A stretch of DNA of 47,180 nt from Escherichia phage phiEB49 (JF770475), one strand, 5' to 3'. Counted from the stretch's first letter, positions 1 to 24,460 are shown. Numbers and translations are program-made. The notes: generated by a model from the letters alone, not told the origin.

Positions 1-258
1 TTTGTGTGAAGTCATCATACCATTAAATGCAACCATTGCAAGCATTATCTACGCGTAGAAAAAAGTTATGACCTGTTATTTTTTATGGTTACGCCGCCAG
101 CCCTTGCACTGCAAGGTTGTTATACCGTAGAAAAATGTAGATTGATTTTTTACCCACCTCTTGATGCCCCTCTGGATTGCGCTTCTTGCAAGTATTTATC
201 ACCAGCGCAATATAAAAAATATCACCAATATCTCAGATAATCATGGTTACGGAATAAC

Positions 259-283
259 ATATAATAATAATAATAATAATAAT
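259..283. repeat. (ATA)7 microsatellite in AT-rich control region
   Basis: Direct read: ataataataataataataata; a shorter (ATA)3-4 copy with similar flanks lies at about 19589-19602. Confidence 0.8.
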
Positions 284-460
284 AAATCTAAAGTGTTGTT
301 ATATAAGGGATTTATTTTGTAACCAGCGCGTAAATTCGCGTGAATGTCGTAGATGTGGCTAAATGTCTACACGGTTGAACAGTTTATAACGCGTATATAA
401 AGGAAGGATCTCCGCGGGCGACAAAACCAACCAACTAGTTGATACATCCTCCTTCATTCC

Positions 461-1804: not shown

Positions 1805-3388
1805 ATGTTTGATTTTAACGAAGATAAGTTATCAGTAGAACAGGTAATGTCTGTTGCGGCAGCTGAGAATTTACCACCTTTGCGAGTTGCTATTAATGCA
1901 AATGGCTATCGTCAAAGCGCTTCATTCTGGAAGGCTCCGGTCGAGATTGATTCAACTGGTGATAAATATCCAGTCATCTCACTTGGAAATGATTGTGATG
2001 TTGTCGGGAAGCTATCTAGCAACATTGCACGCTCCGTTCAGTTCCCTGAATCATCTGCTTACATGCATTTTCTTGGATGCATATCAGCTGCAATGCTTGG
2101 TCGATTCACTGTTGAGTATCACGGAACTCAGCAGCCGACATCCCTGTACGTCGTAACCAGTCAGCCGCCATCAACTGGTAAATCAGCAATCAACTCACTC
2201 GCACTCGCGCCAATGATTGCAGAGACCGAGCGACTGAATGAGATTCGCAAGCGTGACCGTAAGAAGATTATGGCTAAGCTGTCAGCTCTGGCAAAAGAGA
2301 TGAAGCAGGAGAAGTCACCTTCCGAGATGGCTGGATTGTTCGAGGAAAAGGAAGAGTTAGAGGAGAAACTAGAGAAACTTTGCGATATCGTATTTCCAGT
2401 ATCAGACACTACGCCTGAAGGTCTTGCGCGAATAAACAACCGTCAGGGTAACTTCTCCGTGATTTCTGATGAAGCGACAAGTGTTAACTCATTACTCGGC
2501 ATGACATATGGCGATGGCTCGAAGAAAACAAACAGTGAACTTGTTCTTAAAGCATGGGATGCCGGTAACGTATCCATCGCACGCGCTAATGCAGAGAACA
2601 ACATGAGCTTTATCGCTATGGGCTGTATCTCAGTAATTGCTCAGGACGAAACGATCGTCGCAATCATGAATGCTGGCGCTCGCGGTATCGGTGTATCAGA
2701 GCGTTTCCTTCTTGTGCGTGAGAAGTCATTCCTTGGTGAGCGTGTTTTCGTCGATGATAATGGAGAATCAACATATGAGCCTATCGATGGCACCCTTAAA
2801 GCTGACTACTTCCGCCTGGTACATGAAATAATGAATGAGCAAGATGTGAGGCTTACCGTAAGCAATTCAGCGATGAAGCATCTCAACCGTGCGCGCCAGG
2901 AAATGGAACCTCACCTTGCAGATGGCGGTAAGTATTCACATACAATGTTGCGCGGCGCGTTAGGTAAAATGGATAAACAGGTAATTCGCATTGCGGCAGT
3001 TCTTCACACTATCCGCAATTGGTTCAACCCTAATGGCGGTAGTCCGCAGAAGTCAAGGGAGATTGAACTAGAAACGATGCAAGAGGCTTTATTGATGTTT
3101 GAAGAACTGAGTAAGACTTATTTGTCTTCCGCTAACGCGGCTGGTCACGCTGGTGATAATGCAGAGATGAATAAGCTAATTGATATCCTTATTAAGCAAG
3201 GTAAGAACAGCAAAGGAGTTGTAGGGTTGCGCTCACTATATGAAGCGGCGCGTAAGGTTAGACCGTTTGAGGCTCAGGCTGGCGTAATGGCTAAGATTAA
3301 AGACCATTTACTGCCGATGCTTGATGAGAAAAACTACACCTGCCTGACTGGCGATAAGATTTACATTAATCCACGACTGCTGGGGTGA
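1805..3388 (+). CDS. large early protein with P-loop-like motif (PSTGKS); N- and C-terminal domains shared with 46106..46648
   Basis: 527-aa ORF; N-terminus MFDF..RVAINANGYRQSA and C-terminus NSKGVVGLRSLYEAARKV..GDKIYINPRLL recur in the 180-aa paralog; function not assigned. Confidence 0.6.
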   Translation: MFDFNEDKLSVEQVMSVAAAENLPPLRVAINANGYRQSASFWKAPVEIDSTGDKYPVISLGNDCDVVGKLSSNIARSVQFPESSAYMHFLGCISAAMLGRFTVEYHGTQQPTSLYVVTSQPPSTGKSAINSLALAPMIAETERLNEIRKRDRKKIMAKLSALAKEMKQEKSPSEMAGLFEEKEELEEKLEKLCDIVFPVSDTTPEGLARINNRQGNFSVISDEATSVNSLLGMTYGDGSKKTNSELVLKAWDAGNVSIARANAENNMSFIAMGCISVIAQDETIVAIMNAGARGIGVSERFLLVREKSFLGERVFVDDNGESTYEPIDGTLKADYFRLVHEIMNEQDVRLTVSNSAMKHLNRARQEMEPHLADGGKYSHTMLRGALGKMDKQVIRIAAVLHTIRNWFNPNGGSPQKSREIELETMQEALLMFEELSKTYLSSANAAGHAGDNAEMNKLIDILIKQGKNSKGVVGLRSLYEAARKVRPFEAQAGVMAKIKDHLLPMLDEKNYTCLTGDKIYINPRLLG

Positions 3389-3545
3389 CTTATGAGAAAG
3401 ATTGAAAGTTTTGTCATGTATTCATTAATACCTATTCACTTGATTAGCATTTTGTTTTGCATACTATCATTAATCCACGACTTCTGGGGTAGATTATGAA
3501 AAATCTTAAAAACTTTATTGTGCATTCATTAATACCTTTTTTGTT
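3365..3545 (+). repeat. tandem duplication (2 copies, about 105 bp apart) covering the 3' end of the 527-aa gene and a small peptide gene
   Basis: ATTAATCCACGACT(G/T)CTGGGGT at 3365-3388 and 3469-3492, each followed by ATGA and a hydrophobic mini-ORF. Confidence 0.6.
3392..3499 (+). CDS. small hydrophobic peptide (35 aa)
   Basis: MRKIESFVMYSLIPIHLISILFCILSLIHDFWGRL; SD GGGGTGA; paralog of next ORF. Confidence 0.3.
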   Translation: MRKIESFVMYSLIPIHLISILFCILSLIHDFWGRL

Positions 3546-3585
3546 TTTCACATTTGTTTTGGTAATGACTTTAATTTATGGGTGA
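3496..3585 (+). CDS. small hydrophobic peptide (29 aa), paralog of preceding
   Basis: MKNLKNFIVHSLIPFLFFTFVLVMTLIYG; start overlaps upstream stop (ATGA). Confidence 0.3.
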   Translation: MKNLKNFIVHSLIPFLFFTFVLVMTLIYG

Positions 3586-3588
3586 TTT

Positions 3589-3924
3589 ATGTTCTTACTA
3601 GACGTTTTCAGATTTTGTGAGAGTTATGAGAGGTTTAATCGGCAGCACCTGGCGGTATTCATTTATCGCCACAAGGACTGCGAAAGAATGGCAAAAGCCG
3701 CGGGAGTTACTACACGTTACTTTGCATCATCTGCTTCAAAGGAGTTTTTGGCCAGGTGCATGACTGAAGGTTACATCGATGTGGTTAATGGTAATTACTG
3801 CAGCAAAGGCAGCACAAAGCGACCATTCGGATTCAGCTTCAGGTGCCTTAATGGTGAGAGCGATAAGTACACTAAAGAGATGATGACAATAGGTGAAATG
3901 ACAGACGACCAGCTATTTGCATAA
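3589..3924 (+). CDS. hypothetical protein (111 aa)
   Basis: ORF track; followed by bidirectional terminator. Confidence 0.5.
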   Translation: MFLLDVFRFCESYERFNRQHLAVFIYRHKDCERMAKAAGVTTRYFASSASKEFLARCMTEGYIDVVNGNYCSKGSTKRPFGFSFRCLNGESDKYTKEMMTIGEMTDDQLFA

Positions 3925-12475: not shown

Positions 12476-15469
12476 ATGGCGATTTATGACGCGGGCACTG
12501 CCTCGCTAGATGCTGATGGTACAGTTACTGGCGTAGGGACAACCTGGCGACAACCACTAACGCTCATTCGCGTTGGTGCAACAATGATTTTCAATACATC
12601 ACCGATTAGCATCGTGACAATCGCTGAGATCTTGAGTGATACAAGCATTCGCGCGTTTAACGATAAGGGATTTATAGCTCCGGAAGGCACTCAGTATTTC
12701 ATCCTGGCTCATGACGGGATTACAGTTCAAGGGCTGGCTCAAGACGTCGCTGAGACTCTTCGTTACTATCAGTCAAGTGAGACGCAGATTGCGGATCTTG
12801 TTGAGCTTGCTAAGTCTGGTGATTTTGATTTTGATAAGTTACAGCGATTAGTTAATGAAGCAAAGGCAAGCGAAACAAATGCAGCATCAAGCGCATTGGC
12901 AGCATCAGCCAGCCAGCAAGCTGCCGCTACAAGCCAGACTCTGGCTGAATCAAGCGCAAGCAGTGCGCAAGCGGCATACAATAACACGGTTGATGTTATT
13001 GCTAATGCTGGTGATGCTGGAACCTTGGTTACGCTTGCTAATATTGGTATAGCTACAGATTCAACACCGCTAATAAATAACTTCGATTGGCAGAATTTTA
13101 CCTTTAAGTCAGGAGGACTTTATCGCGCCAATGTTTCATCAATGATGAACACCCCGGGCGATATCACTTTAACCTTCGGTGAATCCATAGCTGCCTTATG
13201 TATTCAAGTTATATCAAAGTCAAGTAATACAACAACGCACTCCTTAAGGGTTGTATCTCAGTCATCAACAAGCAACCAGTATAGCAGGGAAATTTACATC
13301 CAGTTTACAGGAGCGCCTGGCGCAAGGGTTTTTGCACCAGGTAGAGAAATGGTGATGGTTGGGGCTGGCAAGTCCGGAGGTGGAGCTACGGCATCGAGGG
13401 CTAGAAACTTACTTGATGTTTACTCAAAAGCCGAATCTGACGCAATAAGGACAATTGCTCTTGGTGGGAACTTTCAGGATGGAATGACTATCCAGTCGAA
13501 AAGCCAGCAAATCTTAAATGTTAAAAATGGAATTGCGGAGGCTTATGTGTGGGCGGGGTCACTCCCTAAAGTTGTTCCAGCAAACTCAACGCCTGAAACA
13601 TCTGGCGGGATTGGTGATGGAGCTTGGGTTCAGCTTGGCGGATACTCTTCTGGTGTTAGCTCTATTTATGACTTAATTAACAAACAAGCACAACCTCAGT
13701 CAATTGTGAATGTTAAGTCTTATATTTCTGGCTCCAATTCTGGTGGTGGTGTTTTCTATTGGAGCGAAACAACTCCAAAAAGTAGACACAATGGGGTTAC
13801 AGTGTTCAGCCCCACCGTTCCATTTGACGGAACGCATAGCGGAATTGCTGATTTCATTTCCGCTTCTGGCGAATCTGATCCGTCAGGTCTTGGGTGTTGG
13901 GTTCGAATCACCTCTGGATTTGATGAAATTCACACCGAATGGGCTGGGCATGATGTTTCTGGCATCAACACATCAAATGCATCAGTAATGAAGTGCATTC
14001 AGATGGGTCACGAACAGTCAAAGACTGTGAGACTCAGTGCAGGAAGGCTAAAAGTCTCTTTCGACAATGGGGTTCAGTACAACGACAAATATAGTGTTTT
14101 TAGGCAGACTGCCTTTTTCTTGAGCGGCTTAAAGGTAAAGATTTTTGCCAAAAACGATGTAGAGATTGATATATCAGCGAGCTCTTCTCCGGAAAGGGTT
14201 GTTTTTGGACTTAAGGGTTGTGATTTCATCGCTGAAGGCTTTAACTGGAATAGTGATTTTTCAGACTATTCAATCGGTGAATCAGACACAACTCACAGGG
14301 CTAGGGAAGACTGGTTTGGATTCCTTGCTGAAGGTTGCTCATCAGTTGTTGTTGATAAGATGATTGTTAACGCCTCAAGGGCATTCATAAACGCTGATGC
14401 TTTAAATGGAGACTCAAACGCATTCATTGCCCTAAGGAACTCAAAGTTTAAATATAACGTAAACTACTGCCTGATAACCAGGAATTGTGACTATTCTGAA
14501 TTTATTGGAAATGAAACAAAGCAGTCTGGTAGGGTGTGGCATACTTATGGTGAGGACTATGCGATTTCAGAGCGCAGCAGAAGGTCTTATGCTCACAACA
14601 ATAAGTTCTATTATCCTATATCCATCCAGTCAAGGATAACCCCAGCTGGAGAGAACATAACAGTTACTGATAACTATTATGCTGGCTCAGGGATTTTTGT
14701 TGAAGCCTTCGCTTGTAACAATGTGATATGTAAGGGAAATACAAGCATTATTACAACCGACTCTGTTGGCAGAGCGTCGTCTCACTATCTTTTGATAACT
14801 AACGACGATTCCAATGATTGGGGTGTTAATGAAGGATTGAGTAACATCATTATATCTAACAACATAATGATTGGAGGGGGAATATCTGTGCAGGGTTACA
14901 ACGAAGGGGTGCAGGTTAAAAATGGATTGATTATCACAGATAATACAATGACTGATACAAAAGCGCCTGTGCTTGGTGCTTCGTCGTGGGTTGGAACTAC
15001 ATTCTCTGGTAACAAATGCAGGTTTACACCTGGATATGGTGGCCTTGGGGTTGGAGGGCAGTACCCTACAGTCAGCAATAACATTATAGACGGTGGGTAT
15101 ATTTCGTGCAGGTTTGGGTATGAAATAACATCACCAACGTTTGAAAACAACATTTTTAGAAACACAACTGGAGCGACACTATCAACCATTTTTGATATTG
15201 ATAGTTTTTCTGGTGGTATTTTTAGAAACAACAACTTCAGGGCCTCTAGCTTCCTTATGGTGTTCCCAATTAACGATAACGTTGTTAAGGTTGGTTTTAG
15301 ATATGTTGACTATGGTTTCAGTTCAAGGCCAACAGATACGTATGGTTCAAAGTGCGTAATTAGAGCTGGTGACTGGATTATTAACGACAACCCATCAACT
15401 TATGGCTCTGCTGCTGCCTGGATTGGTGGATCAAACGGTGCTTATCTTCAACTAAGTACTGCTGTATAA
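12476..15469 (+). CDS. tail fiber / tailspike with beta-helix-like C-terminal region
   Basis: N-terminus MAIYDAGTASLDADGTVTGVGTTW typical of tail fiber N-domains; C-terminal NNI/GN-rich repeats suggest parallel beta-helix. Confidence 0.65.
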   Translation: MAIYDAGTASLDADGTVTGVGTTWRQPLTLIRVGATMIFNTSPISIVTIAEILSDTSIRAFNDKGFIAPEGTQYFILAHDGITVQGLAQDVAETLRYYQSSETQIADLVELAKSGDFDFDKLQRLVNEAKASETNAASSALAASASQQAAATSQTLAESSASSAQAAYNNTVDVIANAGDAGTLVTLANIGIATDSTPLINNFDWQNFTFKSGGLYRANVSSMMNTPGDITLTFGESIAALCIQVISKSSNTTTHSLRVVSQSSTSNQYSREIYIQFTGAPGARVFAPGREMVMVGAGKSGGGATASRARNLLDVYSKAESDAIRTIALGGNFQDGMTIQSKSQQILNVKNGIAEAYVWAGSLPKVVPANSTPETSGGIGDGAWVQLGGYSSGVSSIYDLINKQAQPQSIVNVKSYISGSNSGGGVFYWSETTPKSRHNGVTVFSPTVPFDGTHSGIADFISASGESDPSGLGCWVRITSGFDEIHTEWAGHDVSGINTSNASVMKCIQMGHEQSKTVRLSAGRLKVSFDNGVQYNDKYSVFRQTAFFLSGLKVKIFAKNDVEIDISASSSPERVVFGLKGCDFIAEGFNWNSDFSDYSIGESDTTHRAREDWFGFLAEGCSSVVVDKMIVNASRAFINADALNGDSNAFIALRNSKFKYNVNYCLITRNCDYSEFIGNETKQSGRVWHTYGEDYAISERSRRSYAHNNKFYYPISIQSRITPAGENITVTDNYYAGSGIFVEAFACNNVICKGNTSIITTDSVGRASSHYLLITNDDSNDWGVNEGLSNIIISNNIMIGGGISVQGYNEGVQVKNGLIITDNTMTDTKAPVLGASSWVGTTFSGNKCRFTPGYGGLGVGGQYPTVSNNIIDGGYISCRFGYEITSPTFENNIFRNTTGATLSTIFDIDSFSGGIFRNNNFRASSFLMVFPINDNVVKVGFRYVDYGFSSRPTDTYGSKCVIRAGDWIINDNPSTYGSAAAWIGGSNGAYLQLSTAV

Positions 15470-15500: not shown

Positions 15501-15919
15501 CCGTTTAATCCTTCTCCGTTTTCTGCGTGCCATTGCATATGGTGAGCTTGGCATAGCCATCTTACATCCATTGGTTTTGAGTAATCATCATGATGAGCTA
15601 CCGCCTTATCATTCCCGCAAACCTCGCAAGGTTTTTTATTGATCTCACCATCCCTTATCGCGTTATTTAAAATCGTGTGGCAATTATATTTTATGGGGTT
15701 TCTTGATCTATACTCCTTAACGTAACCATCCTTCTGTCTATTGCCCTTTTCTCTATCGTACTCTCTGTAATATTCTATTTTTGATTTTCTATTTGATTTA
15801 ACATCAACCTTATTGCATTCCTTACACTTATTTACACGTCCGTCAGCCATGGCTTTATGTTTATAGAACTCCGTGATGGGCTTAAGCCCACCACATTTGA
15901 AACAGCCTTTATAGTACAT
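15497..15919 (-). CDS. HNH endonuclease (zinc-finger type)
   Basis: CEVCG..AHHDDYSKP..WLCQAHHMQWH; ORF track 15497..16054 trimmed to ATG 15919 because the upstream part overlaps SSB. Confidence 0.6.
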   Translation of the reverse strand: MYYKGCFKCGGLKPITEFYKHKAMADGRVNKCKECNKVDVKSNRKSKIEYYREYDREKGNRQKDGYVKEYRSRNPIKYNCHTILNNAIRDGEINKKPCEVCGNDKAVAHHDDYSKPMDVRWLCQAHHMQWHAENGEGLNG

Positions 15920-16370
15920 AAATATTTGACATACCGTACTGAAGACCAATGGGAGCAAACGGAATATCGTCTTCAAACTGGCTTTGATGCTGTGGTTGCT
16001 GCCGCTGCTGTTGCTGAGGCTGCTGGCGCTGTTGCTGTGGTGCTGATTCCCCACCTCGCTGGCTGAACATCAATCGAGGATTCTGCAACTCAAGCGTAAT
16101 ATAAACCTTTCCATTATGCTCACGCTCATTAACCGCCAATGAATCACCACTCACAGAAATAACTTTCCCTTCCTGAAATGCTTCATCATACCAACTAATC
16201 TGCGCCTCACTGGCAAACATCGTAATCCGGTAATTACTGTACTTACGCTCGCCATCTTTAGTCTTGTATGATTCGCTCATCTCGATGGCGTACATTTTCC
16301 AGTTACCTTTGGCATTCTGACCATCTTTAGTGTAAGGAGCTTTGCGAATCTGACCTGTAATTACGTGCAT
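15909..16370 (-). CDS. ssb: single-stranded DNA-binding protein
   Basis: OB-fold-like N-terminus, Gln/Pro-rich linker, acidic tail ending DDIPF. Confidence 0.8.
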   Translation of the reverse strand: MHVITGQIRKAPYTKDGQNAKGNWKMYAIEMSESYKTKDGERKYSNYRITMFASEAQISWYDEAFQEGKVISVSGDSLAVNEREHNGKVYITLELQNPRLMFSQRGGESAPQQQRQQPQQQQRQQPQHQSQFEDDIPFAPIGLQYGMSNIYVL

Positions 16371-18654: not shown

Positions 18655-19284
18655 TTAGTTCAGTTTCAAAATCTCGCTATTTTTATCAACCAGCTTATTA
18701 ATCAACTCATCCTTATCGTTTAACTTCTGGCAAAGAATTTCACACTGAGATTGATATGAGTAAACTAACTCCTGAGAATCGAAGTATCTACTAGAATCAA
18801 ACTTAAGCTCATACATCTTCTCGTCAACCTCTTCACCATTTGAAGCCTTATCAATGTACTTATAGATAATCTTCTCTAGCTTGTAAACTTCATCTTCGGC
18901 GCGATTTCGTGCTGCTAGCTCCTTGTTGGTTTGCAGCCTCTCCTTCAACACCATGTCGTAAGATACCATTTTTGCCATATGTTCCTTAAGTAGTTTGTTT
19001 TCCCTCTCAAGAACCTTAATCTTCTTAATCATGTTCATTCTTGCTTTTGCGCTATATTTTGCAACAAGGCAAATGGTGTGATCTTTGTCGAGAACTGCCA
19101 CATTGTGCATCTTTCCATTATGGTATTCTTGCTCCTCAAATTGAGGAGCACTACCTTCACCATACAGCTCAACGTACATCGCCTTAACATCCCTCATTAC
19201 GTTATCGTGACGAACATCAACAATTTTAGCAATATCAGCGGTTGTCATGGTCATCTCTTCATCAACTTTAATAATATCCATCAT
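18655..19284 (-). CDS. Rha-like phage regulatory protein with coiled-coil C-terminus
   Basis: N-terminal TTADIAKIVDVRHDNVMRDVKAM resembles Rha family; first gene of leftward operon from control region B. Confidence 0.5.
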   Translation of the reverse strand: MMDIIKVDEEMTMTTADIAKIVDVRHDNVMRDVKAMYVELYGEGSAPQFEEQEYHNGKMHNVAVLDKDHTICLVAKYSAKARMNMIKKIKVLERENKLLKEHMAKMVSYDMVLKERLQTNKELAARNRAEDEVYKLEKIIYKYIDKASNGEEVDEKMYELKFDSSRYFDSQELVYSYQSQCEILCQKLNDKDELINKLVDKNSEILKLN

Positions 19285-19326
19285 CTATTACTCGTTTATA
19301 GCAACGCCATTGCTGCCGATGAGTGC

Positions 19327-19371
19327 ACTATAACCAATCATGAAGCATCCTTTTTGATTATTCGTGCTATT
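19327..19371 (-). promoter_or_regulatory. dyad-motif promoter (half-site variant)
   Basis: TGCTA 19365-19369 with degenerate partner; minus TATAGT 19327-19332; leader before ATG 19284. Confidence 0.4.
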
Positions 19372-19726
19372 TTGTATATCGGTGTAAACCGCACATAAAT
19401 ACGCCTCGCGAGTCTCTGGGCTGCATGGATGCTGAATGTAACTGTTGTAACCAATGTATCCACCACTTTTGCACCCTATCTATATCTATATGCATTTCCT
19501 CCTTAACTGGAAATAAAACATAGTCTTTTAGAAAAACATACAAACATAGCTATAGAGAGTAGTTACAATATATACATAGTAATATATATAATAATAATAA
19601 TACTCTAAACCCTTATTATATAAGGATTTATAGATGTAACTAATGCGTATCTGCGCGTAAAAAGCGTATACAATTTTCCGCGGATGATATTGTATACATC
19701 GAGTTACATCGGTTACGCGTATATCA

Positions 19727-19772
19727 AATAGCACGATTTGCTAAAGACTCCAGCAGCAGCCTTTGCTATAGT
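19727..19772 (+). promoter_or_regulatory. dyad-motif promoter
   Basis: Core 19729-19743; 23-nt spacer; TGcTATAGT 19764-19772; leader CATCGAAACGAAAC and SD AAGGA before ATG 19813. Confidence 0.5.
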
Positions 19773-19812
19773 TACTCCATCGAAACGAAACACACTTACT
19801 AAGGAATACAAA

Positions 19813-20043
19813 ATGACTAACTTCATCAAATCAGCAATCATCGCAGCAGCAGTAATCATGACAGTAGGTTGTTCTTCTGGCCCGCGCCCTGACGGCTGGT
19901 GTGCGACTGAAGTTAACGGTTCTTGTGTTGCTAAATGGAAAGGCGGTGTAGTTGTAGCTTCAGGTGAAACTGATATCCGCTGGGATGGTATCAAGAACTT
20001 CTCTGGCTCAGTTAAAGATCACGGCACAAAGGAGTGGAAATAA
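19813..20043 (+). CDS. cor: Cor-like superinfection-exclusion lipoprotein
   Basis: 76 aa, lipobox MTVGCS, located next to J as in phi80/T1-type phages; ORF track 19738 start trimmed to ATG 19813. Confidence 0.5.
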
Positions 20044-21005
20044 TGCCTCAAGGTATCTTAATAGACCTTAATGACGGAAGGCCAAGAATGGAGATTACGG
20101 CAGGGTTAAGAGCCCCAGCCGTAACAGGAAGCCTTAGCAGCGGCTCTACGTTCGATTCTGCTAACAGCACCAGAGACTTCAGTCTAACAATGACTCAGGG
20201 CTCTACGGCCTTTATATTGCCCACAAAGGCTGTTGATGTTTATGACTTCGACTTTATACCAGAGGTTTATTTCATGAATGGATTCTCAAGGGTTAATAAC
20301 TCAACAGGTAGGATAAGCATAGGAAACTTCAATGGATCATCAGGACACCTGATTGGGTTCGGAGCTCAGGGCTTCGAGGTCCTTGGAGCGTCATCTGGAA
20401 GTGAGGGTATATTTGTTAGTGACTCGACAAATTTCACGGCGATAACATCAAACTCAAGGCTTCTTACTGCTCAATATGTTGGTTCCGTTACAGTTAACGG
20501 CAGCTACACCCTACCAATAACAGGAATACCTTTTGCAAGATGGAATAACGCTAACGTGACGCTTGAGTTTGACGGAACAAGGCTGCTATGTACTAACAAC
20601 ACGTACACTGGAATTGATAACGTTACAGGTTCAGTAACAATTGACCTTGTGATATTTAACAATACCGCACCAACTGCTGGCCCTGGGTTAACAATGTCAA
20701 ACGCAGCTGGTCAGATTGTGTTCTCAAGCGTAAAGAGGCCATTTGTTCTAAGTGGATTCTTGCAGTTATCTAACTCATACCAATCTATAGGAGGTGGATT
20801 CTTCCCAGTACTACGATGCGGCGCTATGGTTGAGGTTACTGGAGGATATAACAACCTAAGATATAAAGGCGTTGCAATGTCCAATGGTCAGGTTAGGGCG
20901 CACAAAGGAAGCGTTTACGGTAACTACTCAACCCAGTCAGGCGCAAACTTTCCATTCAACACCAACATCTCAATGCAGCTGCCTTACATACCAAGCATGT
21001 ACTAA
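20043..21005 (+). CDS. Ser/Thr/Asn/Gly-rich protein, possible tail-fiber-associated or receptor-binding protein
   Basis: About 320 aa, beta-rich low-complexity composition; ATG overlaps Cor stop (TAATG); convergent with J. Confidence 0.4.
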   Translation: MPQGILIDLNDGRPRMEITAGLRAPAVTGSLSSGSTFDSANSTRDFSLTMTQGSTAFILPTKAVDVYDFDFIPEVYFMNGFSRVNNSTGRISIGNFNGSSGHLIGFGAQGFEVLGASSGSEGIFVSDSTNFTAITSNSRLLTAQYVGSVTVNGSYTLPITGIPFARWNNANVTLEFDGTRLLCTNNTYTGIDNVTGSVTIDLVIFNNTAPTAGPGLTMSNAAGQIVFSSVKRPFVLSGFLQLSNSYQSIGGGFFPVLRCGAMVEVTGGYNNLRYKGVAMSNGQVRAHKGSVYGNYSTQSGANFPFNTNISMQLPYIPSMY

Positions 21006-21034
21006 AAAAGGCCCCAGAAGGGGCCTATATTTTA
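21003..21034. terminator. bidirectional intrinsic terminator
   Basis: AAAAAA-GGCCCC-agaa-GGGGCC-TATATTTT between convergent genes. Confidence 0.7.
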
Positions 21035-24000
21035 ATTCCAAACTCCAACTACAACCCTTCCTCCGCCAGGTAAGTTAACAGTGATTCCGTTACCGTTAAT
21101 CTGAACAGTATTACTTGTTCCGTTAAATGCGAAGTTACCATTGTTAGCGTACAGGCTACCGCGAACAGTGGCGTTACTTAACTCAGCAAAACCAGATTTA
21201 TCAATTGCCCATCCAGCGCTACCTGCAACATAGTTGTTTGATTGAATCCTGTTACCAATCTTAGCGTTAGTAATTGAACCATCCTGAATCACCGCGCTCT
21301 GAATGAACACCTGGTTATTCTCGACAACGAAAGGCAGCGACCACTGACCGGAACCAGAGCTAATGCCGTTGCTGATTGCGAACCTGTTAGCATCGAAAAT
21401 GAACTGACTACGAACGTTTCCACCACTTCCAGTTAGCTCCATGCTCATACCGGCGCCATACTCAACTCCATTGTACTTCAGGCCAAGCTTAACGCCGTAC
21501 TGAACACCAACGCCTTCAACTGTAGCGTAAGAATCAAGCTTCTGATTTAACGCCGCTGTATTCTCACCTAGTTGCGCAGTTAATGCGGTATCTGCCGTAG
21601 CCCTTGCTTCCGTCTCCGTAGCTAGAGCGGTTTCAATTGTCGTAATCTGTCCAACAATCTCATCATCAATCTGCGCTTTGAGCTCCGTGAGGGCGTCTAC
21701 ACGGGCTTGAGTTTCATCAGCAATCAAACTCACGGCCTGACGATATTCAGCCTTCCTGTTAAGATTCTCCTTTGTCATAACGCGTACATCAGTATCGTTT
21801 GCTAGAGCGTTCTCTATAATTGCCTCAGCCTGATTCTGGATGTCAGTATTTGCATCAATAGCGTTCTGGAGAAGATATTTGTACCCATCAGAGTTTTCGA
21901 TATCAACCTTTATATCGCCAATGATCGCACTTACATCATCGGATGCCATGCCTCTGACAAAATCAGTCCATGGAGATACGTTACCTATCCTGTCAATAAT
22001 CCTCGCCCTGTACCACCTCACGTTTCCTGCTGGAAGAGTTGTGTGCCAGTACTCATATTGAGGGTAAGGAACCAGCGTAAGCAGTGATGCGTTTTCTGGA
22101 TTGTATGTACCGTAACCATTATCAGGAACCTGCTGAATCTCAGTGTACGCAGTATCGGCTGAATCAGTAGGAAACCCCCACTTAACCCTAATCCCGAAAA
22201 CCTCATCATCAGACGCGGTAATTACAGGCGGCGCTGATGGCTCTCCAATCTTACCAGTCAAGCTGACTGTCGTTATTTCAGACCATGCCGATACTGATTT
22301 TTGGTCAGTTACAGCACGAACCCTGACGTCGTAAATGCCAGCGTAGATACCTTCAATATCAACTTCAGTGTTAGCCGTCTCGGGAACGTTAATCCAGTTT
22401 CCGTTATTCTTACGCCATTGTACGTTGTATGTTTTCGCATACTGCACCTTGTCGTAACCGATAACCATGGTCTCAACGCTTAATCCCTGAACTACCTTAC
22501 TGTAGCTAGTAACGGTGATATTTTCAGGTGGTAAAATCCTGTCAGGGTCAACGATGCTTGTTGGCCTGTCATCGATGTTTACTCCGTAGTCGATCTCATC
22601 GTACTTGTTAGGGTCATACTGAACAGCTGTGATGCTGTACTGGAATGAGTCCTCGCCGTCCGTGTTAGCTTTTTGAATCCCGGTAACCACATATTGCTGC
22701 AACGCAAGATTCTGCTTGTCGATTGCGAATACCGTATCAGGCTGGGGCGTGAAGCTGAATGCTGTATTCAGTTCAAGCGTAAGCTTATCAGCAGATACGG
22801 AAGCGATAGTCCTGTACTCCGGGCTTCCATCTGGCTTGTTGATTAAAATCCTGTCGCCAGGGTCAGCATCAATAGCGAACGGAACAAAAACCTGTAATCC
22901 TGTAGCTTCAACGATTCGACCCGAAAGGTTCAATGTGTAGTTGCTAGACCACGCCTGGTCATTGACAGCAATTACATCACCAATCATAGGAATCATGCCT
23001 TCCAGGCCAGTTGTGAAAGTTACCGTTTCACTGCGAAGGTTTGTTTTCAGCAACCATCTACCTCGACGGTTAGCCTCACTACGCCTTACGCAGCCAATTG
23101 CGGTCAGGTCTACAGGGTTGTAACCAAATCTACGAGTCGCCTCAAGGTCAAATACTGGCTCGACATCTTGCTGATAGTTATTCTCTACGTCATCAAACTG
23201 AACGTTTGCAGTCGTGTAAAGAGACTTATCACTAGAGAATGTCCTGTTAAACAATCCATCAACAACGTTATCATTGGTGAATACATAGCTAGGCTGGCGC
23301 GGCCTGTCTACAACAATCCCGATTTGCTCACCGTCATAGAAGGTTAGACCTCGGAAAATAGAACAGATGTCACGAATAAGCTGATAAGCTTCCACTTTCT
23401 GCTGAATGACAACGTTACAAGTATATCTCGGCTCCATCCCGCCTTTGCCGTCCGGAACCATCTGGTCACAGAATTGCGCAGCTTCATACAGGCCCCACTT
23501 ATCAATCTCTACACCAAGCTCCCGCTGGTCCAGGCCGTAACGCTGACTAACCACCAGGTCATATAAAACCCAGGCTGGATTATCAGACCATGCCATTTTA
23601 AAAGTGCCATCCCAGGTTCCGCTATAAGTACGAGTCTCTGGGTTGTAGTTTGTTGGTACACGGATAATCTTCCACTTCTTCTTAATAGCTATCGTTGGGA
23701 TGCCGTTTGGGAAAAGGTCAGAGCTGAACTCAACGTAAACAAGAGCCGTAAGAGGGTAGCGGAATTTAGCGTCGATTACTTCCTGATAGGTTGTAATCTG
23801 CATCCCGTTAACCAGTGTGCTGCTTGTTGAGTCCGGAGTTAACTTCCTAATACGAACAAGAGCGCTGCTAAACTCTGCTGGTAAGTTAACCCTGATACTG
23901 CGGTCGTAACCTGTTGTAGTTTTACCGTTAGCCACGCCTCTGGTATATTCCGTGTACGCTGCGCCATTAACTGATAAATCGATTGCATATTCGCATGTTG

Positions 24001-24460
24001 TACCATTTAAATCTCCATTCTCTTCTTGTTTAACTAGTCGAGGCCAGAACAGCTTGACTCGGATTGCTGATAACTGACTGTTGTTAACTGCGATGATGTA
24101 AGGCGTATCGTTGTTAATCTCACGGCTAACCTGAATCTCCGACGCAGCACCATCTAGTCCTGCGATGTAATCTTGGGATTGAGTGCCAGGGCGAAACTCA
24201 GCCGTTACACCTTCGTAGTTGAATGAGTTGTCCTGGTTCTGTACGGGAACATCAGCAAGGTAGAGATCCTTTAGTGAGAAACTTGAGTCAACCTCACCAT
24301 CAGCAACCGCCAACAGAACCTTAATCTTGTTAAGTGAAATCAGGTTATCTTCTTGCTCTACAGGCGTGTGCTGCTTCTGGCTTCCACCCTTGCTTCCATA
24401 AATCTTTGGCAAATCGGTCATATCATATAACCTCGTTGTTTGTTTAACCATTTGTGCCAT
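21032..24460 (-). CDS. J: central tail fiber / host specificity protein (lambda J-like)
   Basis: 1142 aa; N-terminal GSKGGSQKQHTPVEQEDNLIS matches the lambda J N-terminal signature; possible true start at ATG 24421. Confidence 0.85.
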   Translation of the reverse strand: MAQMVKQTTRLYDMTDLPKIYGSKGGSQKQHTPVEQEDNLISLNKIKVLLAVADGEVDSSFSLKDLYLADVPVQNQDNSFNYEGVTAEFRPGTQSQDYIAGLDGAASEIQVSREINNDTPYIIAVNNSQLSAIRVKLFWPRLVKQEENGDLNGTTCEYAIDLSVNGAAYTEYTRGVANGKTTTGYDRSIRVNLPAEFSSALVRIRKLTPDSTSSTLVNGMQITTYQEVIDAKFRYPLTALVYVEFSSDLFPNGIPTIAIKKKWKIIRVPTNYNPETRTYSGTWDGTFKMAWSDNPAWVLYDLVVSQRYGLDQRELGVEIDKWGLYEAAQFCDQMVPDGKGGMEPRYTCNVVIQQKVEAYQLIRDICSIFRGLTFYDGEQIGIVVDRPRQPSYVFTNDNVVDGLFNRTFSSDKSLYTTANVQFDDVENNYQQDVEPVFDLEATRRFGYNPVDLTAIGCVRRSEANRRGRWLLKTNLRSETVTFTTGLEGMIPMIGDVIAVNDQAWSSNYTLNLSGRIVEATGLQVFVPFAIDADPGDRILINKPDGSPEYRTIASVSADKLTLELNTAFSFTPQPDTVFAIDKQNLALQQYVVTGIQKANTDGEDSFQYSITAVQYDPNKYDEIDYGVNIDDRPTSIVDPDRILPPENITVTSYSKVVQGLSVETMVIGYDKVQYAKTYNVQWRKNNGNWINVPETANTEVDIEGIYAGIYDVRVRAVTDQKSVSAWSEITTVSLTGKIGEPSAPPVITASDDEVFGIRVKWGFPTDSADTAYTEIQQVPDNGYGTYNPENASLLTLVPYPQYEYWHTTLPAGNVRWYRARIIDRIGNVSPWTDFVRGMASDDVSAIIGDIKVDIENSDGYKYLLQNAIDANTDIQNQAEAIIENALANDTDVRVMTKENLNRKAEYRQAVSLIADETQARVDALTELKAQIDDEIVGQITTIETALATETEARATADTALTAQLGENTAALNQKLDSYATVEGVGVQYGVKLGLKYNGVEYGAGMSMELTGSGGNVRSQFIFDANRFAISNGISSGSGQWSLPFVVENNQVFIQSAVIQDGSITNAKIGNRIQSNNYVAGSAGWAIDKSGFAELSNATVRGSLYANNGNFAFNGTSNTVQINGNGITVNLPGGGRVVVGVWN

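Follow-up and report, generated by a model that had tools for sequence, protein, structure and literature searches.

An LptD-type receptor-binding protein and exclusion lipoprotein gene pair predicted in Escherichia phage phiEB49

Introduction

The closest described counterparts of the locus reported here are the lipoprotein Rtp45 of phage Rtp and the receptor-binding protein (RBP) of phage Oekolampad (Bas18), both of which were solved in complex with LptDE. Rtp45 is a lipoprotein of ~6 kDa with a disulfide between Cys30 and Cys38 and was found on the periplasmic side of LptDE, between LptE and LptM (PDB 9RPS; Dunbar et al. 2025, PMC12685063). A hairpin of Rtp45 extends up the lumen of the LptD barrel and displaces extracellular loop 4 by up to 20 Å, which is incompatible with the binding of the RBP (PMC12685063). 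The Oekolampad RBP (9rpt_C) was solved on the extracellular face of the open LptDE (PDB 9RPT; PMC12685063). Here, we analyzed a stretch of 47,180 nucleotides of Escherichia phage phiEB49 (JF770475), which is referred to as the window at its full length, and focused on a gene for a 76-aa lipoprotein and an overlapping gene for a 320-aa protein, which together face a J-like tail-tip gene. Sequence comparison indicates, with a probability of roughly 0.9, that this gene pair is an LptD-type host-recognition cassette of small T1-like siphophages, consisting of an RBP and an exclusion lipoprotein.

The receptors of several relatives have been described. According to a recent preprint, four unrelated RBP families occupy this locus and are specific for FhuA, BtuB, LptD or YncD (bioRxiv 10.64898/2026.04.02.716166). 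The BASEL phages TheodorHerzl, FritzHoffmann and AugustePiccard were assigned to LptD through resistance mutations (Maffei et al. 2021, PMC8594841). For phage OzMSK, a further report states that a targeted deletion in an LptD loop made E. coli resistant (Black et al. 2025, PMC13035648).

Results

Two overlapping genes facing the J gene

The window is the genome of a T1-like siphophage (Drexlerviridae). Homology, domain membership, fold, synteny, the lipoprotein signal and the module boundaries were computed, and the features of the gene pair are as follows.

19813..20043, plus strand: lipoprotein gene of 76 codons (ATG at 19813, TAA at 20041-20043), assigned to the Rtp45-type superinfection-exclusion lipoproteins
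19801-19806, plus strand: Shine-Dalgarno (SD) sequence AAGGAA of the lipoprotein gene, preceding the ATG at 19813
20043..21005, plus strand: RBP gene encoding 320 aa (ATG at 20043-20045, TAA at 21003-21005), assigned to the LptD-specific family (DUF6453; Rtp44 / Oekolampad RBP type)

The stop codon of the lipoprotein gene and the start codon of the 320-aa gene share one base within the sequence TAATG. All elements of the layout given in a preliminary description of this DNA, which had been made from the sequence alone, were recovered by our analysis: a 76-aa lipoprotein with a lipobox adjoining the J gene, the TAATG overlap with the next open reading frame (ORF), which amounts to one base at position 20043, and convergence on J, which lies 26 nt away on the minus strand (21032-24460). 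When phage records were searched by tblastn, 353 matched the lipoprotein and 404 matched the 320-aa protein, and it is therefore concluded that these ORFs did not arise by chance.

The lipoprotein is of the Rtp45 type

The lipoprotein signal was called by a rule-based check (PROSITE PS51257), which located K6 in the n-region, an uncharged h-region (GRAVY 2.2) and the lipobox M-T-V-G-C ending at Cys20. Residues 1-19 form the signal peptide and Cys20 is the predicted lipidated residue. Residue +2 is Ser21 and not Asp, which agrees with sorting to the outer membrane. The mature protein has 57 aa and 6.1 kDa, and its size is the same as that of mature Rtp45.

The lipoprotein was assigned to Pfam family PF24052 (Phage_lipoprotein) with an E-value of 1.3e-35 and a score of 121.7 bits against a cut-off of 27, residues 1-75 being aligned on positions 1-80 of the profile; Rtp45 itself scored 128 bits. 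The protein also falls in PHROG 4281. A sequence search of the PDB returned chain D of 9rps, which is Rtp45 (2.1e-35), and the identity to Rtp45 of phage Rtp was 73% over 75 aa, while the lipoprotein of phage TR1 was 100% identical. Cys30 and Cys38 are present at the same positions as the disulfide pair of Rtp45, and a disulfide is predicted here as well. The motif RPDGWCA is likewise retained, and these two residues and the motif were at least 95% conserved among 44 family members of the PF24052 type. Cells carrying cloned rtp45 are reported to be resistant to Rtp.

Detected homology to Cor is limited to the signal peptide

In the preliminary description, the lipoprotein was taken for a homologue of Cor, the lipoprotein that inactivates FhuA in T1, phi80 and N15, which would make the phage dependent on FhuA. 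The positional likeness on which this idea was based does exist: in T1, the gene that fills the equivalent place, between the J module and the exonuclease gene and encoded opposite to J, is cor. In addition, both proteins are lipoproteins of the same size class (75-78 aa), a T1-like cor is found at this locus in the nearest backbone relative, Opt-719, and T1 Cor gave a sub-threshold match to PF24052 (17.7 bits against the cut-off of 27). This match, however, was unsupported by profile-profile comparison. When mature-domain profiles were aligned with those of Cor by hhalign, the probability was 0.3% with an E-value of 0.21, at a sensitivity limited by the low diversity of the profiles (Neff 1.4 and 2.2), and the score obtained with full-length sequences was due to the signal peptide. 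BLASTP against T1 Cor aligned 17 residues (9-25), which cover the signal peptide and lipobox only. A MAFFT alignment revealed that the hallmarks of Cor, namely the RAGYPF motif and the C-terminal Cys of T1, N15 and HK140 Cor, are absent from the lipoprotein as well as from Rtp45. Cor homology was thus rejected after BLASTP, MAFFT, Pfam scans of Cor proteins, and hhalign with and without the signal peptide, since only the signal peptide aligned. Similarity to Cor beyond the signal peptide was not found by these methods, whereas the lipoprotein signal itself is present.

The gene context also speaks against a Cor-type function. The partner gene encodes a member of the LptD-specific RBP family, and the T1 gp32/gp31-like genes, which follow J in T1, N15 and HK140, are absent from the window, where the J and RBP genes are 26 nt apart; two unnamed ORFs are located at the gp32/gp31 position after J in Opt-719. 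It is thus highly improbable that the lipoprotein is a Cor-type inactivator of FhuA. The earlier idea of an exclusion lipoprotein remains valid in that the nearest characterized relative, Rtp45, is a superinfection-exclusion factor, but the family (Cor) and the target (FhuA) have to be replaced, as the homologous proteins target LptD. By homology, the lipoprotein is Cor-like, and likewise T5 Llp-like, in its predicted blocking of the phage's own receptor from the inside; it is not a member of the Cor family and its predicted target is LptD, not FhuA.

The 320-aa protein is of the LptD-bound RBP type

The preliminary description of the 320-aa protein as beta-rich and rich in Ser, Thr and Asn agrees with its composition (G 11.9%, S 11.2%, T 9.1%, N 8.4%) and with its AlphaFold2 model. 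The protein belongs to PF20051 (DUF6453), with an E-value of 1.7e-136 and 454.8 bits against a cut-off of 25, and residues 4-297 were aligned on profile positions 1-291. Its sole sequence match in the PDB was chain C of 9rpt (also present in 9rpw and 9rqi), with an E-value of 4.9e-67 over residues 2-320. The homologue of CJ19 was 93% identical and the OzMSK RBP was 64% identical, followed by the proteins of FritzHoffmann (45%), TheodorHerzl (44%), AugustePiccard (43%) and Rtp (Rtp44, 43%). In the preprint, each of the four families is delimited by an identity above 30% and a coverage above 99%, in the case of the LptD-specific family relative to RBPs of phages whose LptD dependence was assigned by experiment (bioRxiv 10.64898/2026.04.02.716166). 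The RBPs of OzMSK, TheodorHerzl, FritzHoffmann and AugustePiccard all lie within this range and were aligned over residues 1-320.

A search of 1.84 billion cluster representatives returned only 68 clusters related to the 320-aa protein, most of which are standalone proteins of 310-345 aa. The AlphaFold2 model, which was built on 51 of these 68 clusters, reached a pLDDT of 92.6 and a pTM of 0.90 and was almost entirely beta. When this model was compared with the PDB by Foldseek, 9rpt_C was matched with an E-value of 2.2e-20, a probability of 1.00 and a TM-score of 0.89 normalized to the target. No other significant match was found in the PDB by this comparison, and the next one had an E-value of 0.66. 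The structure prediction that had been proposed for this protein thus gave a single fold match, the LptDE-bound Oekolampad RBP. The earlier suggestion of an accessory receptor-binding protein was essentially correct as to receptor binding; the protein is, however, the predicted RBP itself rather than an accessory one.

Database labels point to a different function. PHROG 1265, which the 320-aa protein matched, is labelled 'moron, auxiliary metabolic gene and host takeover / membrane protein', and a homologue carries the label 'membrane protein' in several RefSeq records, as would be expected if the second ORF encoded a host-membrane 'moron' protein, or a second exclusion factor, instead of a component of the virion. 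The 320-aa protein, however, has neither a signal peptide nor a hydrophobic segment (the maximum Kyte-Doolittle mean over 19 residues is 1.07), and its soluble all-beta fold is shared with the RBP whose structure was determined at the extracellular face of LptDE. Furthermore, locus and receptor use are correlated in a set of more than 100 phages. We therefore rejected the 'membrane protein / moron' label and consider a role in the host membrane extremely unlikely; a second exclusion factor, which the preliminary description had also proposed, is unsupported.

It may also be asked whether the cassette, although of the Rtp44/45 family, carries an allele that drifted to another outer-membrane receptor, or whether the phage needs a second receptor besides LptD. 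The RBP is 30-64% identical to solved or genetically tested proteins, and the receptor modules at this locus are exchanged and quick to diversify. Moreover, the preprint reports that Bas01, which has an RBP of the same family, needs NupG as well through a domain of its J protein (bioRxiv 10.64898/2026.04.02.716166). On the other hand, all experimentally typed members in the cited papers use LptD, the preprint ties this RBP family specifically to LptD, and the co-inherited lipoprotein is 73% identical to Rtp45, which binds LptD. The J protein of the window is devoid of the 33-residue insertion and of the divergent segment of Bas01 J and resembles Rtp43 and TR1 J in this region. In a comparison made with Bas01 J, no sign of a NupG-type domain like that of Bas01 was seen in J. 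A shifted or additional receptor is therefore quite unlikely, and LptD is preferred as the receptor of this phage, at a confidence slightly below that of the family assignment.

Distant tblastn homologues of the lipoprotein (40-51% identity) and of the DUF6453 protein (23-26%) were also observed in phiEco32-like podophages of the Gordonclarkvirinae type with genomes of ~75 kb, namely phiEco32, Paul, StefiGeyer_Bas88 and ManiMatter_Bas94, in which the two genes stand at separate places of the genome. This suggests, at the level of sequence, that phiEco32-like podoviruses may likewise use an LptD-type pair of RBP and exclusion protein.

The exchanged module includes the tip of J

The features downstream of the RBP gene are as follows.

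21009..21026, both strands: putative bidirectional intrinsic terminator AGGCCCCAGAAGGGGCCT, a 7-bp hairpin with 6 GC pairs and T-runs on both strands
21032-24460, minus strand: J-like tail-tip gene of 1142 aa, convergent with the 320-aa gene
21032..21223, minus strand: last 64 codons of the J-like gene, inherited with the RBP module; presumed docking site of the RBP
21224..24460, minus strand: remainder of the J-like gene, from the ORF list, homologous to J of Rtp (Rtp43), TR1, CJ19 and Opt-719

The stop codons of the 320-aa gene and J are separated by a gap of 26 nt, and the GC-rich 7-bp hairpin lies within this gap. An Rfam search of 19200-21200 by E-value returned a noise match only, which fell on the terminator (Atu_C8, 20.9 bits against a gathering score of 50, E 0.47). 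A structured RNA in or around the locus was thus rejected.

The arrangement in the window is identical to that in phage Rtp, where rtp45 (76 aa) and rtp44 share one base and are convergent with rtp43 (J). The same order of lipoprotein, RBP and J was found in TR1, CJ19, ETEP102, OzMSK, TheodorHerzl and AugustePiccard. The best match of the backbone was the Rogunavirinae phage vB_EcoD_Opt-719, with 87% identity over 69% of the first 25 kb. When the locus was compared with that of Opt-719, the similarity was 94% up to position 19823, i.e. 11 nt into the lipoprotein ORF, was absent until 21223, and was resumed at 91% from 21224. The swapped block (19824-21223) thus begins at codon 4 of the lipoprotein gene and takes in the final 64 codons of J. 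In the exchanged interval, Opt-719 has a 34-aa hydrophobic ORF, the T1-like cor and two genes on the strand of J.

The last 64 residues of J were 25% identical to Opt-719 J and 94-95% identical to the J proteins of TR1 and CJ19, which have the same RBP type, whereas the rest of J was 87-96% identical to Opt-719 J. Since the two parts of J show opposite patterns of identity, the exchanged unit comprises the lipoprotein gene, the RBP gene, the terminator and the tip of J. Co-inheritance of the J tip would fit a non-covalent docking of the RBP on the C terminus of J. The N-terminal 20 residues are the most conserved part of the RBP family and are a candidate docking element for the J tip. Receptor-specific C-terminal tips of GpJ are reported in the preprint (bioRxiv 10.64898/2026.04.02.716166).

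Insertions were observed next to the module in two relatives. In OzMSK, an inserted DNA methyltransferase gene (locus 746-1438) separates the lipoprotein gene from the conserved upstream region, and in AugustePiccard (locus 3014-3703) a DNA methyltransferase gene together with further small ORFs is inserted in the same interval. Because of these methyltransferase insertions, the stretch just upstream of the cassette is regarded as an insertion hotspot.

A further ORF was observed elsewhere in the window, in the following context.

12476-15469, plus strand: lateral tail fibre gene encoding 997 aa
15497-16054, minus strand: HNH-endonuclease-like ORF with CxxC ... HH ... H motifs, between the lateral tail fibre and SSB-like genes
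15909-16370: SSB ORF, overlapped by the annotated 5' end of the HNH ORF

The HNH ORF is probably a homing endonuclease insertion, and TR1 and Opt-719 have HNH genes in the same recombination region.

A repeated promoter-like cassette precedes the lipoprotein gene

A sequence element upstream of the lipoprotein gene recurs in the window at the positions given below, among others.

19728..19812, plus strand: promoter-like cassette with its leader, immediately 5' of the lipoprotein gene
588, 1265 and 1728, plus strand: other copies of the cassette
8500, 17137, 26294, 35448, 40595, 44976, 45292 and 46109, minus strand: other copies of the cassette

The copy at the lipoprotein gene consists of ATAGCAC-N3-TTGCTAA (19728-19744), which contains the inverted repeat TAGCA-N5-TGCTA, a variable spacer and a -10-like hexamer TATAGT (19767-19772), and is followed by the conserved leader CCATCGAAACGAAAC, the SD sequence and the ATG. 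The motif occurs in 20 copies in the window, against 0.63 expected by chance. In its repeated form, a variable and often hairpin-forming spacer is followed by TATAGT, the leader CATCGAAACGA, and an SD sequence with ATG. An automated scan detected an SD sequence and a start codon 69-85 nt downstream on the same strand in 14 of the 20 copies, including those at the erf gene and at small ORFs near both genome ends.

The non-coding stretch of ~270 nt at 19550-19812 was ~90% identical across phages of different Drexlerviridae subfamilies and was more conserved than the flanking genes, and a stretch of 83 nt was ~80% identical to intergenic DNA of the T4-like Pseudotevenvirus GAP161 and its relatives. 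The distance of 23 nt between TTGCTA and TATAGT is non-standard for sigma-70, while TATAGT is a good -10 element. A generic scan for sigma-70 promoters in 19200-21200 gave 5 sites against 5.3 expected. Hairpins were strong in 8 of the 20 copies (z of -2.4 or lower) and weak in the copy at 19728 (z of -0.3). A stem in the spacer of the latter copy is unsupported, as the variable columns of an alignment of six phages showed no compensation and the folding z-score was only -0.3.

A repeated intergenic motif with promoter boxes that ends in an SD sequence and ATG, as found in these 14 copies, resembles the promoter-early stem-loop (PeSL) cassettes that are known from T4-like phages (Arbiol 2010, PMC2839356; Comeau 2014, PMC4122927). 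In PeSLs, too, a -35-like box is followed by a variable spacer that often forms a hairpin, by a -10 box and by an SD sequence with ATG, and PeSLs are likewise repeated, intergenic and located at the boundary of an exchanged gene module. The present cassette differs in its occurrence in a siphophage of the Drexlerviridae, in the 23-nt spacing of the boxes and in the weak hairpin of the copy at the lipoprotein gene. We found no paper that links PeSLs with Drexlerviridae. The cassette may serve as the promoter of the lipoprotein-RBP operon and as the left recombination anchor of the module. A broader idea is that both flanks, the PeSL-like cassette and the body of J, anchor the recombination by which receptor modules hop between subfamilies, and that the cassette is a mobile regulatory element shared across phage families. 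We regard this idea as tentative and rather doubtful; if true, it would extend an element that has so far been described only within T4-like myoviruses.

Another repeat was observed in the AT-rich part of the upstream region. The segment 19574-19661, in which ATGTAACTAATGCGTA and repeats of the words GCGTA and GTTAC occur, is found a second time, with 77% identity, near the left end of the window (257-344). It could be a regulatory site or be tied to replication or packaging.

Discussion

A scheme for the function of the gene pair can be drawn from its relatives, from which LptD binding, the exclusion mechanism, the docking to J, co-transcription and timing are taken over. The RBP would be held non-covalently at the C-terminal end of the J-like tail fibre and would insert into the extracellular mouth of the LptDE lipopolysaccharide translocon, which would act as the terminal receptor and trigger DNA injection. 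The 76-aa protein would be exported, lipidated on Cys20 and, owing to Ser at +2, delivered to the inner leaflet of the outer membrane. It would then bind LptD from the periplasmic side, at a site between LptE and LptM, with a beta-hairpin reaching up the barrel lumen. Extracellular loop 4 would be displaced by this hairpin, so that the RBP of a second phage of this type, or of progeny meeting cell debris, could not bind, and superinfection would be excluded. Both genes are probably co-transcribed from the cassette at 19728-19812 and probably translationally coupled through TAATG, and their transcription would stop at the terminator shared with J.

Several points weigh against this assignment. 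The identity of the RBP to the Oekolampad RBP is moderate (~30% in the Foldseek alignment; the PNAS paper gives 33% between the Oekolampad RBP and Rtp44), and its fine specificity, e.g. the LptD alleles recognized, could therefore differ. According to the preprint, some relatives such as Bas01 need a second receptor through J (bioRxiv 10.64898/2026.04.02.716166). Residues 32-37 of the lipoprotein, which correspond to part of the strand of Rtp45 that pairs with LptD, are TEVNGS instead of TQASGV. The presumed co-transcription of an exclusion factor and a virion protein from one early-type promoter would differ from the situation in T5, in which llp is expressed early and the pb5 gene late. Finally, the case for this phage is built from sequence and model data, and the authors of the LptDE structures state that AlphaFold predictions of complexes were wrong for these proteins.

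The cassette is already known, and its mechanism, structures and genomic logic were published in 2021-2026; the present analysis adds no new biology. Its value lies in a correct annotation, according to which the predicted terminal receptor of the phage is the essential LptD translocon and not FhuA. Production strains that are 'T1-resistant' owing to fhuA (tonA) would accordingly not be protected, as in the OzMSK outbreak, and exclusion of other LptD-dependent phages is predicted for the 76-aa lipoprotein. The measured boundaries of the module are an example of the modular exchange of receptor specificity already known from Drexlerviridae and could be of use in engineering RBP swaps.

Among the known systems, the pair Rtp45/Rtp44 and that of Oekolampad are the most similar, as they share with the window the same two Pfam families (PF24052 and PF20051), the gene order, the one-base overlap and the convergence on J. 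Rtp45 and Rtp44 are 73% and 43% identical to the proteins of the window, with the lipobox and Cys30/Cys38 conserved and with the predicted fold of the RBP equal to that of the solved Oekolampad protein. In contrast to Rtp, the RBP allele of the window falls in the branch of OzMSK, AHP42 and CJ19 (64-93% identical) and not in that of Rtp and AugustePiccard, and the backbone is Rogunavirinae-like rather than of the Braunvirinae or Dhillonvirus type. OzMSK gp038 (RBP) and gp039 show the same locus architecture, with 64% identity of the RBP over the full 320 aa and ~73% identity of the lipoprotein, but a DNA methylase gene lies between the upstream regulatory region and the lipoprotein gene in OzMSK and is absent in the window.

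Cor of the T1/phi80/N15/HK022 type is likewise an outer-membrane lipoprotein of ~75 aa, encoded beside the tail-tip genes, that inactivates the phage's own receptor and thereby protects the infected or lysogenic cell, and T1 cor has the same slot and orientation. It differs in that homology is limited to the signal peptide, FhuA is the target, and the RBP arrangement is another one, with the accompanying T1 gp32/gp31-like genes on the strand of J. The pair pb5/Llp of T5 follows the same logic, in which a monomeric RBP at the tip of the central fibre is combined with a lipoprotein that faces the periplasm and blocks the same receptor from the inside, although its sequences are unrelated to those of the window and the receptor of T5 is FhuA. 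The mechanisms also differ: Llp works allosterically, over a long range through the plug, and Rtp45, the closest characterized relative of the lipoprotein described here, by direct steric displacement of a loop (PMC12685063).

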